A DNA stretch of 12,747 bases from a virus, in UHGV virus genome UHGV-0250286. One strand, written 5' to 3'. Each line of letters begins with the position of its first letter. Position 1 is the first letter of the stretch. Both the position numbers and the translations under genes were made by a program. Of this stretch, positions 1-12,747 are shown in pieces. The notes under the pieces were generated by a model. It had not been told where the DNA came from, searched no databases, and saw only the letters and a program-made list of their open reading frames with translations.

Positions 1-134
1 AGGTGAATCATTGGGGAGTGCCGTTAAGCGGTATATGTCAATGAATACTGACGCAGCGCCAGCACAAGATTCGACACCTTCAGGAGAACCACGGAATCAG
101 GTTGGATCATATACCTCAAGATCAGGCATTCAAT

Positions 135-1208
135 TTACTCAACGTCTTTATCCGTTGCTGGGCCGGGAGGTAGGAATTTAAGAACCTGACTGTTAACAAG
201 GGCATTTTGGCGAATGCGCAAATCACGCAATGTCGTATCGCTTCCGGTAAGTTTTGCGAACATGTTCTGTGCGTTACCGAACAAGCCGGTCGTTGGTTTT
301 TCTGCTCTGAACTGTTGAGCAAGCGCACTCATGGAATTGGCTGAGTTTGATGATGCTGTGGCATTGTTTACAGCCGTCTCGATGCCTTTTTCCATGTTTA
401 CTGACAGCTTAGGTGCTTCGCTAATCAACTGCTGAGCCTTTTCCTGCGCTTGCTGCATCTTAAACCCGAACTCTTGCTGATCCAGAGCCAAGCGTTGTGC
501 TGCGATATTGTGCCCAGTCATTGCTGACTGATAGGAAAGGTTTTGCCCTCTCGCCTGAAGTGCTTCACCAGCCTGATTGCTGCGGATTGTCTCTGCCAGC
601 CCGCCTCGGTCAATCTCACGACCAGCCATCTTGTCCTGAACATTGAAGTAATCAATCGGACCAAGAGCAGCCATTCCAAGGTGATCAACAAACTCACCAA
701 ATCCTGAAGGATTCTGCTGATACATCTGAGCAACGCTGTTAGGGTCAACACCGACGCGAGTCAGTTCCTTGGCGTTGTTTTGCAGCCATGATTGCATTGC
801 TTCTGGAGACGATGACGCAAGGCGTGCGCCAGCCGCTAATGTACCGATAGAATTACGCTGGTCTTCATCAATGAATCCCATGCCTTTACGAACGGATTCA
901 ATCTGGTCTGGATATTGAGTAGCTAACTGACGCAAAGCACCGCGATCACCAGACGCATAAGCATTAGCGTATGCCTGCTGAAATTCTTTCTGCCGCTGAG
1001 CCTGCTTTTCCTGCTGAAACACCCCTGCAATACCTGAAAGGCCTTGCAAAGCAGTCAGCCCAACATTGTTAGCGCCTGAACGCTCAATATCATTGTTCTG
1101 CCTGATAAGCTGAAGCGTATTGCCGATGTCATTTACGCTCGGAGCGTTTGAGTTGACGCCGCCGATACCAGCCAACAATCCGCCGTTTGTTCCTTGCCAA
1201 GTAGCCAT
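135..1208 (-). CDS. ejection (E) protein, P22 gp20-like
   Basis: 357-aa ORF directly downstream of the gp7-like gene, the position gp20 occupies in P22. Start ATG at 1206-1208 is preceded by a GGGG Shine-Dalgarno in the 9-bp gap after the gp7 stop. Gln/Ala-rich, low-complexity composition typical of ejection proteins. Shorter than my recollection of P22 gp20 (~470 aa). Confidence 0.6.
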   Translation of the reverse strand: MATWQGTNGGLLAGIGGVNSNAPSVNDIGNTLQLIRQNNDIERSGANNVGLTALQGLSGIAGVFQQEKQAQRQKEFQQAYANAYASGDRGALRQLATQYPDQIESVRKGMGFIDEDQRNSIGTLAAGARLASSSPEAMQSWLQNNAKELTRVGVDPNSVAQMYQQNPSGFGEFVDHLGMAALGPIDYFNVQDKMAGREIDRGGLAETIRSNQAGEALQARGQNLSYQSAMTGHNIAAQRLALDQQEFGFKMQQAQEKAQQLISEAPKLSVNMEKGIETAVNNATASSNSANSMSALAQQFRAEKPTTGLFGNAQNMFAKLTGSDTTLRDLRIRQNALVNSQVLKFLPPGPATDKDVE

Positions 1209-1217
1209 GATTACCCC

Positions 1218-1910
1218 TTAAAACAACGAGCCAAGCAATCCGATACCAGCACCAATGCCAGCGCCCCAAGGCGTTGATGTTCCCAAAAGGCTGGCAAGAC
1301 CTGCACCGGCAATCGCACCAGACGTGCCACCGCTAATTGCAGTCTGAAGACTTGATGGTTTATTGGCATTAGCAGCGGCAAGTGCTGCGCTTTGCTGTGC
1401 AATGCTGCTCATGTTGTTGGCGTATGTCTGCCCAGCGTTTGCCTGACCTTGCAGCGCACCAAGCCCAACGTTTGCCAGATTGTTGTAATTGCTCATCTGA
1501 TTTGATAACCAAGACTGACCGAGTGTCGGCGCGATCGTAGCCAGTTGATTGCTTGTGGCTGTCGAACCAAGTCCACCCGTCGCCTCCGCAGCAGCAAGAC
1601 TCTGGTAACGAGCCTGCCCTGCAAGGTCTTTATACTGCTGAGAGTTGTAATACTGATTAAGTGCCTGCCCCTGACCTTCTAAACTGGAAAGGCTCTGAAG
1701 CTGGTTAACATACTGCTCCGCAAGAGGCGTGAACTGAGCAAGGTTTTTCATGATCGTCTGCCACTGCTGATTTTGCAGGTCTGCAGCATACTTCTGGGCT
1801 TCTGCTGCATACTTTGCGCTTTTATCAGAACTGCCACCTTTCCCGCCTTTTTCAGGGCAATAAGGTTCCTCGCCGCGCAGTTTTCTGCCCAGCTTAAATG
1901 CATATAACAT
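1218..1910 (-). CDS. ejection protein, P22 gp7-like
   Basis: 230-aa ORF. N-terminus MLYAFKLGRKLRGEEP... and the Gly/Ala-rich C-terminus ...WGAGIGAGIGLLGSLF match the P22 gp7 family as I recall it. Correct position between the gp14-like and gp20-like genes. Confidence 0.8.
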   Translation of the reverse strand: MLYAFKLGRKLRGEEPYCPEKGGKGGSSDKSAKYAAEAQKYAADLQNQQWQTIMKNLAQFTPLAEQYVNQLQSLSSLEGQGQALNQYYNSQQYKDLAGQARYQSLAAAEATGGLGSTATSNQLATIAPTLGQSWLSNQMSNYNNLANVGLGALQGQANAGQTYANNMSSIAQQSAALAAANANKPSSLQTAISGGTSGAIAGAGLASLLGTSTPWGAGIGAGIGLLGSLF

Positions 1911-1912
1911 GG

Positions 1913-2371
1913 CTATCTCCCGTGATTCAGGAAGTCGATTAGTTCTTCGCGTGTGGCGCTGTAAAACGTCACGTCATCCACGCCTTTAAAGTATTTCTTG
2001 ATGGTTCCTACACGATTAAGGCCAATCATTGCGCAGTACATCTGCCCGTGGCGGAATTTGCGTGCAGCGAACGATGTGACACACTGAACAGTGGTGTTAG
2101 TCAGAATGTATCGCCAGAACGCCAGCCCGATTTCCTTGCTGAATCCACGAACCTCTGGCAGGTACATGGCGTGGCAATCAAAGGTCAAAGGCTGAATCTC
2201 CTGATAGTAAACAATGCCGCCGAACTGCCCGTGCACGTTCACCTCGAAGTAACGGCATTCAGGCTTGTAGTCGTATCCATCACCGTTGTTGCTCCCGGCA
2301 ATAATGTCAGGGTGATTTCCGACTGCTTCGATCAGGTCGATGTTTCGCGTTTGGTTGAACTGAATCATCAC
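1913..2371 (-). CDS. P22 gp14-like protein (assigned by position)
   Basis: 152-aa ORF between the tail needle and gp7-like genes, where gene 14 sits in P22. Its ATG (2369-2371) overlaps the tail needle stop as ATGA, suggesting translational coupling. Assignment is positional only. Confidence 0.5.
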
Positions 2372-3321
2372 TGCTCCGCGATTATCTTGATGGTTGTGGC
2401 AGTAAACGCCGCCACATTTGACTGGATGGTTAACGTACTGCCATTTGTGGCAAGAAAGCCGTCTTTATCCACGCTGAAGAACGTAGCTAACAGGATGTTA
2501 TCGGTTGTTGTCGCCGAGTTGCGACTGCTTACCAGTGTGTCAGGAACAGATCCGGAAAAGGTTAGCTGCATTGACCTGTTTGCGGTTCCGCTGGGCCACG
2601 TCCCGACAATCGACAGCTTGAAGAACAGGGTTTTGTTCTCGTTGAAAACAACCATCTTGTTGTTATCAGTATCGAAGAATGGTGCCAACGTCCCGGATGA
2701 CGGCGTGAGCGTTTTCAGCAGGCTAACAAGGTTGGTCGGCGCTGTTGGAATGGTTACCGATACTCCTGAGTAAACAACCTCTGATTTCTTGCGCGTGGTG
2801 GCATACTCAAGCGCAGATATTCTTGTTGAGTGATCACCAACTGTGCTTTGTAGCGTCGAAATACTTCCCTCTGCCGCTGTGAGCCTGGTATCAAGTGCGT
2901 TGATATCGGTTGTATTCTGAGTTATTCGCGCATCATGGTTTGCTAACTCAGATTCATTGGCAGCAATTCGCGTCTCGTGATCAGCCAGCTCTGTTTCGGC
3001 AGCCGTAATCCTTGTTTCATGATCTGCAAGAGTGCTTTCCGCTGCTGCGATTCTATGTTCATGATTGACGAGAGTTGCTTCAGCAGCAGCAATTCTGGAT
3101 TCATGGTCTGCAAGGGTGACATCCTGCTCATCATTCTTCACCTGTGCATCATAAGCTCCCTTCCCTGCTTCGTTGGCCTTGTTAGCCACGTTACCAACAT
3201 CAGTACCCTGTGCGATAACGTACAGCAGATATGACTGCGAGAAGATATTGCGTGGAAGGACTGATGTGTCGAGTCGTGTAGCCTGAATGATTACCGGCTC
3301 ATTGAGATTCGAATCAGCCAT
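2368..3321 (-). CDS. tail needle (P22 gp26 family) with a C-terminal knob-type domain
   Basis: True start is [43 protein letters not shown]..., the conserved gp26 N-terminal domain. Its ATG (3319-3321) overlaps the gp10 stop. A central coiled-coil repeat region is followed by a ~150-aa Ser/Thr-rich C-terminal domain unlike the P22 gp26 C-terminus, resembling the knob seen in Sf6/HK620-type needles. The ORF track's 351-aa form includes an upstream extension I regard as spurious. Confidence 0.8.
2905..3114 (-). repeat. five imperfect 42-bp tandem repeats (14-aa repeats) in the tail needle coiled-coil region
   Basis: Protein shows [14 protein letters not shown] / [14 protein letters not shown] / [14 protein letters not shown] / [14 protein letters not shown] / [14 protein letters not shown]. 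The DNA shows recurring gcagcaattc/gcagccgtaatc/gctgcgattc blocks. Confidence 0.7.
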
Positions 3322-4748
3322 TACTCGATCCTTATCTGGCAGCCAGACAGAGTGACAGGTGACTTCGTGATAACGCGCAATTTGAAGCCGACATTTTTCC
3401 TGATGCGCCCGACTCGCTTCCACAAAACACGCTTGTCGTAAACGAACGGTTCATTCTGCTCAATCATCTGCTCACGACCGTAATTGATGCCATCAGTGGT
3501 TGCCGAGAGGAACAGGCGGTCGGCGTACTGAGCGACCCCCGTCGATGATTCCACCTCCAGATCAAAGCATCTGGCGTTATCTGCTTTGAAGAGTGGAGTA
3601 AACAGCAGGTGTTCTTGCTGTAGCCCATACTGGCTGCTGATGTCGAACTGCAATTTTCCGGTCACGGACTCCAGCTTATCGCCGCACGTTATCTGATTGC
3701 CTTCGTAAATGAAGTCGATAGCGCGGTACACATCGTCATACAGGCCTGTTTTCAGCACACACCATTGCGGACCATTGGCGCTTGAAGATGCGTCGTACAC
3801 AAGGACGTGACGCGAAAGATGGATAATCAGCAACTCATGAGCATCAAACCGCAACGATTCCATCACACCATCAGCCAGTTCATCAGCAGTGTAGGAGCGG
3901 AGGATTTTCTCAATGCTCGCGCTGGCGATTGGTGATACCTGACCGGAGCCGATGATGTATACAGACGGAGCACCTGTTGCCGGATTGCTGATAAACGCAT
4001 AGGAATCAGCAAACGGCGTTTTGCAGTAAGTTCCGGCAATGCCTTTCTGCACCATCAGTGATGGCTGTGCGACATACAAAGCGGCACCAACGGTGGTTGC
4101 CCCAGTCAGGGAAAAATATTCAATCGTCGATGAACCAAAGCAGACGATGAAGTCTCGCCATGTTCCGATGCCGAGGATACCGTCCGGCTGCGATTCTGCG
4201 CGATATTGTGCGCTGTAACGGTCAGGATGCGATTCGTCTTCAGGGTCAGTGATAAACCATGAATCCGTGCCGTCTTTTGACCACGCATAACGCCCACGTA
4301 AACGCGTAATGTCGCGAACCGAACCTAACTCATACTGAGTGAATCCGCTGTCTGTAGGCCAGTTTGAGACTGTTTTAACCGTTCCATCATAGCGATACTC
4401 GACCAGTTGACCATTAACGCCTACCGCCTGAGATGTTCGACCATGCGCCATTGATACGCGACCACTTCCGGCAACATCACCGACCTCGCTTTCGCCCTTA
4501 TACAACTTGCCACCGCAAACGCGATAAACAGCATTCTGCGCCATGTTGTACTCGACACCGCGCGATACACCATTCACATCAGAGCGTTTGGCAATGCCAG
4601 GGAATGAGCGAAGATATCCACTGCTGTTGAGGATTTCTTTGGGGGTTGCCAGCATATTCACTGGCAGATAGTCGATATAGTCGGCGTTTCGAAAGTCTTT
4701 GCCACCTTGAAATGATGATGGCTGAATGGCTTGGCGGTGATGTGTCAC
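3321..4748 (-). CDS. gp10-like head-completion/tail-hub protein; native first ~12 codons replaced at a rearrangement junction
   Basis: From [38 protein letters not shown]... to the C-terminal ...[11 protein letters not shown] the ORF matches the P22 gp10 family. Upstream of codon G(12) at about 4703 the reading frame continues into the reverse complement of a gp4 fragment ([15 protein letters not shown]), beginning with GTG at 4748 and no Shine-Dalgarno. The native N-terminus [20 protein letters not shown] is found instead on the plus strand at 5089-5151. Confidence 0.7.
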
Positions 4749-4807
4749 CTGGTATCAACGTTGGCTACATTTTCGCTGATGCAGATGTCGCTCCAGATCC
4801 GGGCGAT
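4678..4807. repeat. left junction block: 26-bp (4678-4703) plus 104-bp (4704-4807) segments whose exact reverse complements occur at 5125-5150 and 5151-5254
   Basis: I reverse-complemented both segments by hand and they match 26/26 and 104/104. 4678-4703 is tagtcggcgtttcgaaagtctttgcc; 4704-4807 runs accttgaaatgatgatggct...gatccgggcgat. Confidence 0.9.
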
Positions 4808-5089
4808 GAGCACGGTTTATCAAATAACGCTATCAATGCCGTCATTTTCAACCTTGCCTGCCGCATTGCTCCGGATTATGCGCTGGAAGCGTCTGCAAAA
4901 CTTATAACCACTGCCAGATACGGGAAAGAGAGACTCGTCAAACTGTCTGCAATGGACAGAGCAAAAGCCGCTAAATGTAAGTCCGGTTATCCAAACCGTA
5001 TGCCTGTTGGTAGTGGTAACCAGTTGGCGAAGTGGAACGGCTGGAATTACTTCCAGCGAAAGGAACCTTGCGATAACGGGAGCGAATAA
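4704..5089 (+). pseudogene. 3' portion of the gp4-like adaptor gene, inverted onto the plus strand
   Basis: Plus-strand frame encodes [127 protein letters not shown]. Joined to the minus-strand N-terminal fragment this gives a ~166-aa gp4-like protein. No Shine-Dalgarno ahead of this fragment. Confidence 0.75.
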
Positions 5090-5151
5090 TGCCGATTCAG
5101 CAACTTCCGCTTATGAAAGGTGTCGGCAAAGACTTTCGAAACGCCGACTAA
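5089..5151 (+). pseudogene. first 20 codons of the gp10-like gene, inverted onto the plus strand and detached from the gene body
   Basis: ATG at 5089-5091 overlaps the gp4 stop (TAATG) and encodes [20 protein letters not shown], then a stop. GKDFRNAD continues as YIDYLPVN only on the minus strand at about 4677. Confidence 0.75.
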
Positions 5152-5254
5152 TCGCCCGGATCTGGAGCGACATCTGCATCAGCGAAAATGTAGCCAACGT
5201 TGATACCAGGTGACACATCACCGCCAAGCCATTCAGCCATCATCATTTCAAGGT
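5125..5254. repeat. right junction block: 26-bp (5125-5150) and 104-bp (5151-5254) inverted copies of 4678-4703 and 4704-4807
   Basis: ggcaaagactttcgaaacgccgacta followed by atcgcccggatctggagcgacatc...catttcaaggt. Perfect reverse-complement identity to the left block, but the two sub-blocks are in swapped order, so this is not a simple palindrome. Confidence 0.9.
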
Positions 5255-5369: not shown

Positions 5370-5595
5370 CTGCTGCCGCCTTAGGTTTTCGACCAGGCTT
5401 TTTACGCTGTTTTTCTTCTGGCTCTGGCTCTGGCTCTGGCTCTGGCTCTGCAACATCATTCAGAAGATTATCAGGATGTGCAAACCAGCCAGCATCCAGA
5501 TATTCCTGAAGCTCTTCGGCTTTCACGATTTCAAAGTCGTATCCAACGCCTTTCCATTTCTTCATGTCGCCATGACGAAAGATCATGTGTGTCAT
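5347..5595 (-). CDS. hypothetical small protein (82 aa) between the coat and adaptor genes, with an acidic (EP)5 repeat and a basic KKPGRKPK tail
   Basis: ATG at 5593-5595 with a GGAG Shine-Dalgarno 6 nt upstream, located just downstream of the post-coat terminator. Encodes [82 protein letters not shown]. Its 3' end overlaps the gp4 start by 23 nt. Sf6-type genomes carry a small ORF in this position; P22 itself, as I recall, does not. Confidence 0.55.
5417..5450. repeat. hexanucleotide microsatellite, (GCTCTG) x5 plus a partial unit
   Basis: tctg gctctg gctctg gctctg gctctg gctctg is read directly in the sequence. It encodes (EP)n in the 82-aa ORF on the minus strand. Confidence 0.9.
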
Positions 5596-12269: not shown

Positions 12270-12351
12270 TGTTGGCTCAAGATTCTTTGTGGTGGCGGAC
12301 TGATGGAAAGACATCCGCTGAATCGATGATAAACAAGTGGAAGAGGTTGCG

Positions 12352-12522
12352 ATGGTTTCCGTGAACAAAGATCCGAAGGAAGGCGTTGAATACATCACTG
12401 GTGCTGATGGTGTGAAAAGACCAATGGCTTATTACAAAGCGGCTGAAGAGAGGGCAAGAATAGAAAATCCCCCTAAATGCGGATCATTTTTCGACATGCT
12501 GGACCTTCAATGGAAGTTGTGA
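12352..12522 (+). CDS. hypothetical small protein (56 aa) on the strand opposite the late operon
   Basis: ATG at 12352 with a strong GGAAGAGG Shine-Dalgarno 5 nt upstream. Encodes MVSVNKDPKEGVEYITGADGVKRPMAYYKAAEERARIENPPKCGSFFDMLDLQWKL. A terminator-like hairpin follows 11 nt after the stop. Confidence 0.4.
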   Translation: MVSVNKDPKEGVEYITGADGVKRPMAYYKAAEERARIENPPKCGSFFDMLDLQWKL

Positions 12523-12532
12523 ACAACTAACA

Positions 12533-12557
12533 GGTCGCTCAGGCGGCCTTTTTTATT
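12533..12557 (+). terminator. candidate rho-independent terminator for the plus-strand small ORF
   Basis: GGUCGC-ucag-GCGGCC (6-bp stem with one G.U pair) followed by UUUUUUAUU. The minus-strand orientation has no U-tract, so it would not stop late-operon transcription. Confidence 0.35.
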
Positions 12558-12747
12558 GCCATCACAAAAGCCATTCCCTACAGAGTGGCTTTGGTAATGG
12601 CTTATAATCAGGCAGGAGGTTCATCTTTCAGTGGCTGCCAGTGTTATTTCCCCACTTACTGGCTTGGGTTGTTTCGCGGTACTGCCGTAACTGGTTGCCC
12701 AGAATAAATTCCGGTTTCATTATCAAGCCCACCCGTAGATAGGCTTT

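Follow-up and report, generated by a model that had tools for sequence, protein, structure and literature searches.

Work published between 2009 and 2013 described the HS1-type needle protein, the structure of its knob, its shaft of 16 heptads and the mosaic distribution of needle tips among P22-like phages; annotation of the gene is routine. Extending past the tailspikes, the needle makes contact with the surface of the cell; as the particle reorients the needle is shed, and the ejection proteins and DNA then leave (PMC9400499). The hexameric tail hub, gp10, holds a quasi-sixfold plug made up of the trimer’s N-terminal helical hairpin (PMC9728967). Needle tips assort independently among P22-like phages, and a survey of 164 genomes found the Sf6-type knob in 69 and P22-type tips in 95, with HK620 typifying subtype A of the P22 type (PMC3741392). 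The HS1 needle has a shaft of 16 heptads, compared with 11 in Sf6 and P22, and the HS1 and Sf6 shafts share 67% identity (PMC3741392). The HS1 knob, solved at 1.1 Å, is 99% identical to that of Sf6; its L-glutamate ligands are Glu181, Lys235, Ser283, Asp285, Leu290 and Lys312, and a phosphate site is formed by Ser266-Arg267-Asn268 (PMC3741392). Homologues of the knob in T4-like phages and in Mu-like Vibrio prophages keep the glutamate-contacting residues (PMC3741392).

The stretch analysed here, referred to as the window, is the whole 12,747 nt of DNA from virus genome UHGV-0250286. The gene under study (Table 1) almost certainly belongs to a P22-like (Lederbergvirus) E. coli prophage and encodes its tail needle, in the HS1 variant of the Sf6 type; no observation speaks against this identification. 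It is 100% identical to genes annotated in RefSeq as ‘tail needle knob protein’ in complete E. coli chromosomes (e.g. Ecol_881, IR53017, EC11 and CUVET19-970), and the exact protein is present in 604 blocks of a public contig index. The full-length form also occurs in the isolated phages vB_EcoP-720R6, JEP4 and Gally, at 94–96% DNA identity. The gene order gp10, needle, gp14, gp7 places the needle between the tail hub and gp14 in a P22-like late operon. Its start codon overlaps the stop of the upstream gp10 homologue by 1 nt (TAATG) and its stop codon overlaps the start of the downstream DUF2824/gp14 homologue by 1 nt (TGATG), which is the tight packing expected for a late operon. The downstream product is 97% identical to both Sf6 gp10 and HS1 gp14. 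Two antisense ORFs inside the needle region, both on the plus strand (2048–2773, 241 aa, and 2977–3234, 85 aa), were taken as spurious because they have no Pfam family and lie opposite strongly conserved genes.

Table 1. Features of the needle locus and the inverted segments of the window (nucleotide positions are those of the window).
Feature	Position	Strand	Basis and remarks
Gene 14 homologue (DUF2824), downstream of needle	1913..2368	-	PF11039, E 1.5e-52
Tail needle gene (P22 gene 26 / Sf6 gene 9 homologue)	2368..3321	-	ORF and translation, 317 aa plus stop; ATG 3321-3319, TGA 2370-2368, 317 codons
C-terminal knob (TNF-like jellyroll trimer), residues 173-317	2371..2805	-	PF16532; 4K6B/3RWN
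Distal non-repetitive part of coiled-coil shaft, residues 139-172	2806..2907	-	Heptad register continues to residue 172
Five 14-residue (42-nt) units, residues 69-138; four clear, fifth degenerate	2908..3117	-	Unit identities, lag-14 test, Tandem Repeats Finder
N-terminal plug / helical-hairpin domain, residues 1-68	3118..3321	-	Alignment and PDB matches 8EAP_B, 2POH, 5BU5
Gene 10 (tail hub) homologue, upstream, colinear part only (residues 13-472)	3321..4703	-	99% identity to Sf6 gp8 from residue 13
Inversion 1	4704-5154		Inverted copy of Ecol_881 15021-15472, in place of 15125-15441
Inversion 2	1-138		Inverted piece of gp20 3′ end; gp20 truncated
Inversion 3	12279-12606		328-nt inversion, with 46-nt and 7-nt losses vs strain MS14385

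Among named needles, the closest relative of the window needle is that of HS1 from E. coli HS (EcHS_A0316 / WP_000785558), which has the same 317 aa, 16-heptad shaft, 14-aa units and knob and is 96.5% identical. The two proteins are separated by 11 substitutions, two of which fall in the knob (V219D and G303V). Sf6 gp9 (282 aa) is 35 aa shorter; its N-terminal domain and its knob (3RWN) are nearly identical to those of the window needle, whereas its shaft has lower identity, consists of 11 heptads and lacks 35 aa (28 + 7) of the window needle’s shaft. P22 gp26 (233 aa; 2POH, 3C9I and 8EAP) occupies the same gene position and has a homologous plug and proximal coiled coil, with 54% identity over residues 1–159, but it ends in an unrelated P22-type tip without PF16532, where the window needle has a knob.

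An initial annotation, made from the sequence of the window, had assigned the first ~60 residues to the conserved plug domain, and structural and sequence comparisons agree. Residues 1–73 are near-invariant in an alignment with P22 gp26, HK620 gp26, Sf6 gp9 and the HS1 needle. A P22 gp26 chain (8EAP_B) matches residues 3–64 with an E value of 1.5e-27, P22 gp26 chains in the PDB match residues 1–139, and the HK620 gp26 structure (5BU5) matches residues 1–79 with differences at only 3 positions.

The plug is followed by a single unbroken heptad register that runs from residue 70 to residue 172. The a positions read L I L I L I L I L I I L I V I and the d positions H A H A H A H N H N L A L H L, a register (a = L/I/V, d = H/A/N/L) that would suit a three-stranded coiled coil. 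Each 14-aa unit comprises two heptads, L..H... and then I..A... (a = L/I, d = H/A), and the 14-residue periodicity arises because these two kinds of heptad alternate. Four of the units are clear (residues 69–82, 83–96, 97–110 and 111–124, with pairwise amino acid identities of 64–79%), and a fifth (residues 125–138) is weaker, at 36–50% identity. Self-identity at a lag of 14 residues reaches 36 of 56 positions, compared with 6.2 ± 2.3 in shuffled sequences, and none of 5000 shuffles reached 36. The same units are only 40–79% identical at the DNA level, where Tandem Repeats Finder reports just 3 copies of period 42 (at 2995–3118); near-perfect DNA repeats were not found among the units, and the longest exact runs common to them are 7–8 nt. 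The proposal of five tandem 14-aa (42-bp) repeats is therefore sound for the protein, with the reservation that the fifth unit is weak, and generous for the DNA. The accompanying statement that these repeats take the place of a simple heptad pattern has to be withdrawn, as the heptad register is plain and uninterrupted. Residues 70–172 correspond to the 16 heptads counted for HS1, five more than in Sf6 or P22, so that the shaft should be ~50 Å longer than that of Sf6.

The C-terminal part is a knob of the Sf6 type. Residues 136–317 match the Pfam family PF16532 (Sf6-type phage tail needle knob) with an E value of 8.6e-106 and a score of 351.6 bits against a cutoff of 27, and residues 165–317 are ~98% identical to the TNF-like knob crystal structures of HS1 (4K6B) and Sf6 (3RWN). 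The window protein has every one of the L-glutamate ligands (E181, K235, S283, D285, L290 and K312) as well as the S266-R267-N268 triad, and all 11 positions checked are as in HS1. Collinearity with the C-terminus of P22 gp26 (∼141–233, the P22-type tip) was considered and rejected: in the numbering of the window protein, the blastp alignment with P22 gp26 ends at residue 159 and that with HK620 at residue 98, and the C-terminus aligns with neither the P22 nor the HK620 C-terminus. Sf6 gp9, by comparison, aligns from end to end. The initial annotation was right that the C-terminus departs from P22 gp26 and resembles the Sf6 knob, and mistaken in naming HK620 as a second bearer of that knob; HK620 gp26 is a 233-aa protein with a P22-type tip that has no match to PF16532, in agreement with the alignment and with its published place in subtype A (PMC3741392). 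Outside the P22-like phages, the knob homologues of T4-like phages and Mu-like Vibrio prophages and the adenovirus and PRD1 fibre knobs are likewise distal TNF-like jellyroll trimers, but, unlike the window needle, they are not known to have a gp26-type plug domain or to sit in a P22-like tail.

The surroundings of the gene are mosaic, as had been proposed on the grounds that P22-type head genes accompany an Sf6-type needle. In blastp comparisons with P22, the window proteins are 82% (TerS), 93% (TerL), 77% (portal), 85% (scaffold) and 73% (coat) identical, whereas the same five proteins are at most 32% identical or undetectable in Sf6 and HK620, and at most 34% identical or undetectable when HS1 is included. 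The comparison with Sf6 gives 99% identity for gp10, 97% for gp14, 98% for gp7 and 83% for gp20. Judged by these identities, the head module of the window, from TerS through coat, is of the P22 procapsid/head type, and the Sf6-like block is larger than the needle alone, running from gp10 to gp7. HS1 itself has a different head module: its coat protein is only 26% identical to the window coat and 29% identical to the P22 coat. In HS1, this needle type sits behind a third head type.

Three small inversions distinguish the window from its closest references and disrupt gp4, gp10 and gp20 (Table 1). Inversion 1 yields inverted repeats of 107 nt (4704–4810 / 5148–5254) and 26 nt (4678–4703 / 5125–5150). 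It places gp4 residues 24–159 on the plus strand and leaves a gp10 that matches its homologues from residue 13 only, its first 12 codons being disrupted; colinearity of gp10 with Ecol_881 stops at window position 4703. Around inversion 3, strain MS14385 is otherwise 100% identical to the window. The inversion junctions show 0–4 nt of homology. The needle gene itself lies within the colinear block 138–4703 and is unaffected.

These rearrangements raise the alternative that the prophage is defective and its needle gene in the window a dead remnant that no longer works. If the sequence is correct, the disruption of gp4, gp10 and gp20 would keep this needle copy from being built into a virion, and knob-only remnants are common in O157:H7, both in our length sample (60 of 954 records; see below) and in earlier work (PMC3741392). 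None of the complete E. coli genomes that match (911, 305 or 1212) has any of the inverted arrangements as contiguous sequence. On the other hand, the inversions may be either real, marking a defective prophage, or artefacts of sequencing or assembly. The arrangement was likewise not found in contigs with an identical needle protein; 10 contexts of that protein all have intact gp4 and gp10. Moreover, the needle ORF is undamaged and matches, at 100% identity, the copies found in prophages whose gp4 (166 aa) and gp10 (472 aa) are intact, and decay would bear on the state of this copy, not on the identity of the gene. We consider the remnant explanation possible but rather unlikely, and read the window-specific inversions mainly as a warning on the integrity of the sequence.

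The identity of the gene, its domain limits, heptad register, conserved ligand residues, mosaic context and natural unit-number variants are shown here directly. Assembly of the needle as a trimer, its plugging of the tail and its ejection at infection are known for P22 and Sf6 from the literature, which is also the source for an effect of the knob on kinetics. By analogy with these needles, three chains would form one fibre. Residues ∼1–68 of each chain would contribute a helical hairpin to the plug that closes the channel of the gp10 tail hub and retains the packaged DNA, residues ∼70–172 a continuous trimeric heptad coiled coil, and residues ∼173–317 a TNF-like jellyroll knob with three L-glutamates bound at the subunit interfaces. 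At infection, the needle would meet the outer membrane and be expelled, leaving the channel open for the ejection proteins and DNA. The tip would modulate the speed of delivery and not the choice of host.

A contrasting possibility is that the knob is a receptor-binding domain that sets host range, so that a swap of the module would re-target the phage. The knob is the distal tip and makes first contact with the cell surface, it shares its TNF-like fold with the fibre knobs of adenovirus and PRD1 (PMC3741392; PMC9728967), and knob needles were formerly known from Escherichia and Shigella only (PMC3741392). However, a P22 phage given the HS1 knob is efficient at infecting Salmonella, mutants of the glutamate site are functional (PMC3741392), host-range mutations of Sf6 map to the tailspike and not to the needle (PMC9400499), and knob-type needles are now found in Klebsiella aerogenes and Serratia genomes as well. 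A role in setting host range is therefore improbable. Changes to the tip slow K+ release, which places the role of the tip in the kinetics of delivery and not in host specificity (PMC3741392). The earlier suggestion that the knob may affect interaction with the host envelope survives in this kinetic sense and not as a statement about specificity.

The modestly new point about this needle gene, and the only one, is that shaft length varies stepwise among relatives in units of 14 aa. Among the best 120 homologues, needles with an HS1-type shaft form a ladder of 289, 303, 317, 331 and 345 aa, and those with an Sf6-type shaft a ladder of 254, 268, 282, 296, 310 and 338 aa. The rungs of each ladder are 14 aa apart, and the layouts of the shafts indicate whole units gained or lost in register. 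The two ladders are offset by one heptad, which lies in the segment of residues 139–172. A lone 324-aa protein in the same set has the standard shaft of the 317-aa form plus additional N-terminal residues. By length arithmetic, the observed range of 254–345 aa corresponds to roughly 7–20 heptads, compared with the 11–16 described previously (PMC3741392), so that shaft lengths span a wider range than the published one.

The DNA of eight length variants was used to place the junctions, which are in register at homologies of 2–8 nt. For example, three 303-aa variants have each lost a different unit: P0010 lacks 42 nt, lost at a 7-nt CGCGAAT homology, and otherwise is essentially the window allele (11 mismatches), P0019 lacks another unit, lost at ATCATGAA, and P0011 lacks yet another. 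Two 289-aa variants (P0041 and P0044) carry two different 84-nt deletions, and a 268-aa variant (P0063) carries a 147-nt deletion at TGATCAC. Gains are seen in P0001 (345 aa) and P0009 (331 aa), which have 84-nt tandem duplications of units 1–2. Within the Sf6 series, the 254-aa form lacks a 28-aa unit that is doubled in the 310-aa form and tripled in the 338-aa form. The prediction that the repeats are a substrate for expansion and contraction that changes needle length is thus matched by natural variants in 14-aa steps with in-register junctions, in which the number of units differs between relatives across 289–345 aa (HS1-type) and 254–338 aa (Sf6-type).

Of the 954 E. coli records with a match, 60 were sampled at even spacing; the 954-nt gene (317 aa) occurs in 10 of these and the 912-nt gene (303 aa) in 1. 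About 19 records have the 849-nt gene of Sf6 length (282 aa), about 21 have knob-only remnants (mostly in O157:H7), and 8 match in the N-terminus only and have P22-type tips. The needles of Klebsiella aerogenes and Serratia are also 317 aa long, though only ∼70–80% identical overall, with knobs at 77–79%. The low DNA identity between units, together with the retention of 317 aa in these genera, points to rare short-homology events on a generally stable length. We propose that the shaft grows or shrinks by ∼21 Å at a time (14 residues at a rise of ∼1.5 Å per residue) through infrequent in-register recombination or slippage between the diverged 42-nt units.

Two further readings of the array concern what its length changes are for. 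One holds that shaft length is a selected ‘ruler’, its 14-aa steps being adaptive for projection of the knob past the tailspikes, and that histidine layers act in release. Projection could be matched to how long the tailspikes are or how thick the O-antigen or capsule layer of the host is, and the histidine layers at d positions (H73, H87, H101, H115, H129 and H164) might be a pH- or ion-sensitive element in needle release; we give this combined reading little credence. Known contingency loci have near-perfect repeats. That the 14-aa/42-nt array is such a locus, a fast-switching repeat that varies needle length at high frequency, is very improbable: length classes do differ by exact multiples of 14 aa, the 303-aa class does combine three independent 42-nt deletions, and P0001 and P0009 do carry 84-nt duplications, but the units are 40–79% identical in DNA with exact common runs of no more than 7–8 nt, one length dominates in the sample (10 records with the 954-nt gene to 1 with the 912-nt gene), and the constant 317 aa of the K. 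aerogenes and Serratia needles speaks for stable length and rare change.

With rare, stepwise change of the shaft as the preferred reading, the population-level picture adds a small amount to what is known of these needles, in that shafts shift by exact two-heptad quanta via short-homology events. The proteins of 289, 303, 317, 331 and 345 aa form a natural allelic series in which the effect of needle length on the kinetics of DNA delivery could be tested. A few further length variants, of 285 and 309 aa, are out of register and may be defective.

Full-length knob-bearing needles occur outside Escherichia and Shigella. The needle homologues P0064–P0076 and P0115, 316–318 aa long, come from Klebsiella aerogenes, Serratia marcescens, and S. 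fonticola. Among the eight 317-aa needles checked from this Klebsiella aerogenes and Serratia set, the knob shares only 77–89% identity. In 2013, all knobs of P22-like phages were reported to differ from one another by no more than 4.9% and to occur solely in Escherichia and Shigella (Leavitt et al. 2013, PMC3741392).

Examination of the heptad register of the needle coiled coil places histidine at six core d positions, residues 73, 87, 101, 115, 129, and 164 (window 2830–3105). The needle trimer should therefore hold six histidine triads, which might make the coiled-coil core sensitive to ions or pH.

Small in-frame repeat changes are also seen in the N-terminal domain of relatives (P0082, P0084, and P0078; needle residues ∼39–54). 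The tripeptide KAN is present two, three, or four times, giving forms of 285 and 288 aa, and a 298-aa relative carries a 16-aa duplication ([16 protein letters not shown]) in the same domain.

Other relatives encode fused or partial needles. In P0062, a 394-aa homologue from Shigella sonnei, gp4 sequence passes straight into needle residue ∼57. This direct gp4–needle fusion implies, from the protein sequence, that gp10 and the needle plug domain would have been deleted in that prophage. The knob half alone (needle nt 507–954) was matched in approximately a third of the sampled E. coli records (an evenly spaced 60 of the 954 that match the needle gene), in O157:H7 and its relatives (sample rows H161–H181). 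A small P22-like remnant, the counterpart of these knob-half-only matches, has been mentioned previously (PMC3741392).

The window also contains a complex inversion where gene 4 meets gene 10 (4678–5254). Comparison with Ecol_881, a complete E. coli genome with an identical needle gene, shows that its segment 15021–15472 is present inverted as window 4704–5154, in place of 15125–15441. The inversion left two inverted repeats (see table), divides the gp4 coding sequence between both strands, and removes the first 12 gp10 codons. This arrangement was found contiguous in none of the 911 matching complete E. coli genomes.

Inverted segments likewise lie towards both ends of the window. At positions 1–138, part of the 3′ end of gp20 (Ecol_881 20199–20336) lies in inverted orientation. 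It abuts Ecol_881 position 20010 and thereby truncates the gp20 homologue; the junction was seen in none of 305 matching genomes. Towards the other end, the window matches E. coli MS14385 with 100% identity within a 328-nt segment (12279–12606) and on both of its flanks, but the segment has the opposite orientation, and 46 nt and 7 nt are lost at the junctions. None of 1212 matching genomes has this arrangement.

Repeats and truncated gene in the window
Feature	Position	Strand	Description
Inverted repeat, 107 nt	4704–4810 / 5148–5254		99% identity; left by gene 4/gene 10 inversion
Inverted repeat, 26 nt	4678–4703 / 5125–5150		left by gene 4/gene 10 inversion
gp20 homologue	135–1208	-	truncated
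Hexanucleotide repeat TCTGGC × 5.7	5417–5450		perfect; inside the small ORF69-like gene, which lies between the coat gene and gene 4
Tandem repeat, 21 nt	1780–1821		two copies, 86% match; within gp7 homologue

Two small tandem repeats lie elsewhere in the window. The TCTGGC repeat codes for an (EP)n run, and its copy number differs between the window and Ecol_881. Among the ten contexts listed with an identical needle protein, the counterpart of the ORF69-like gene encodes 78 to 104 aa in nine and 199 aa in one.
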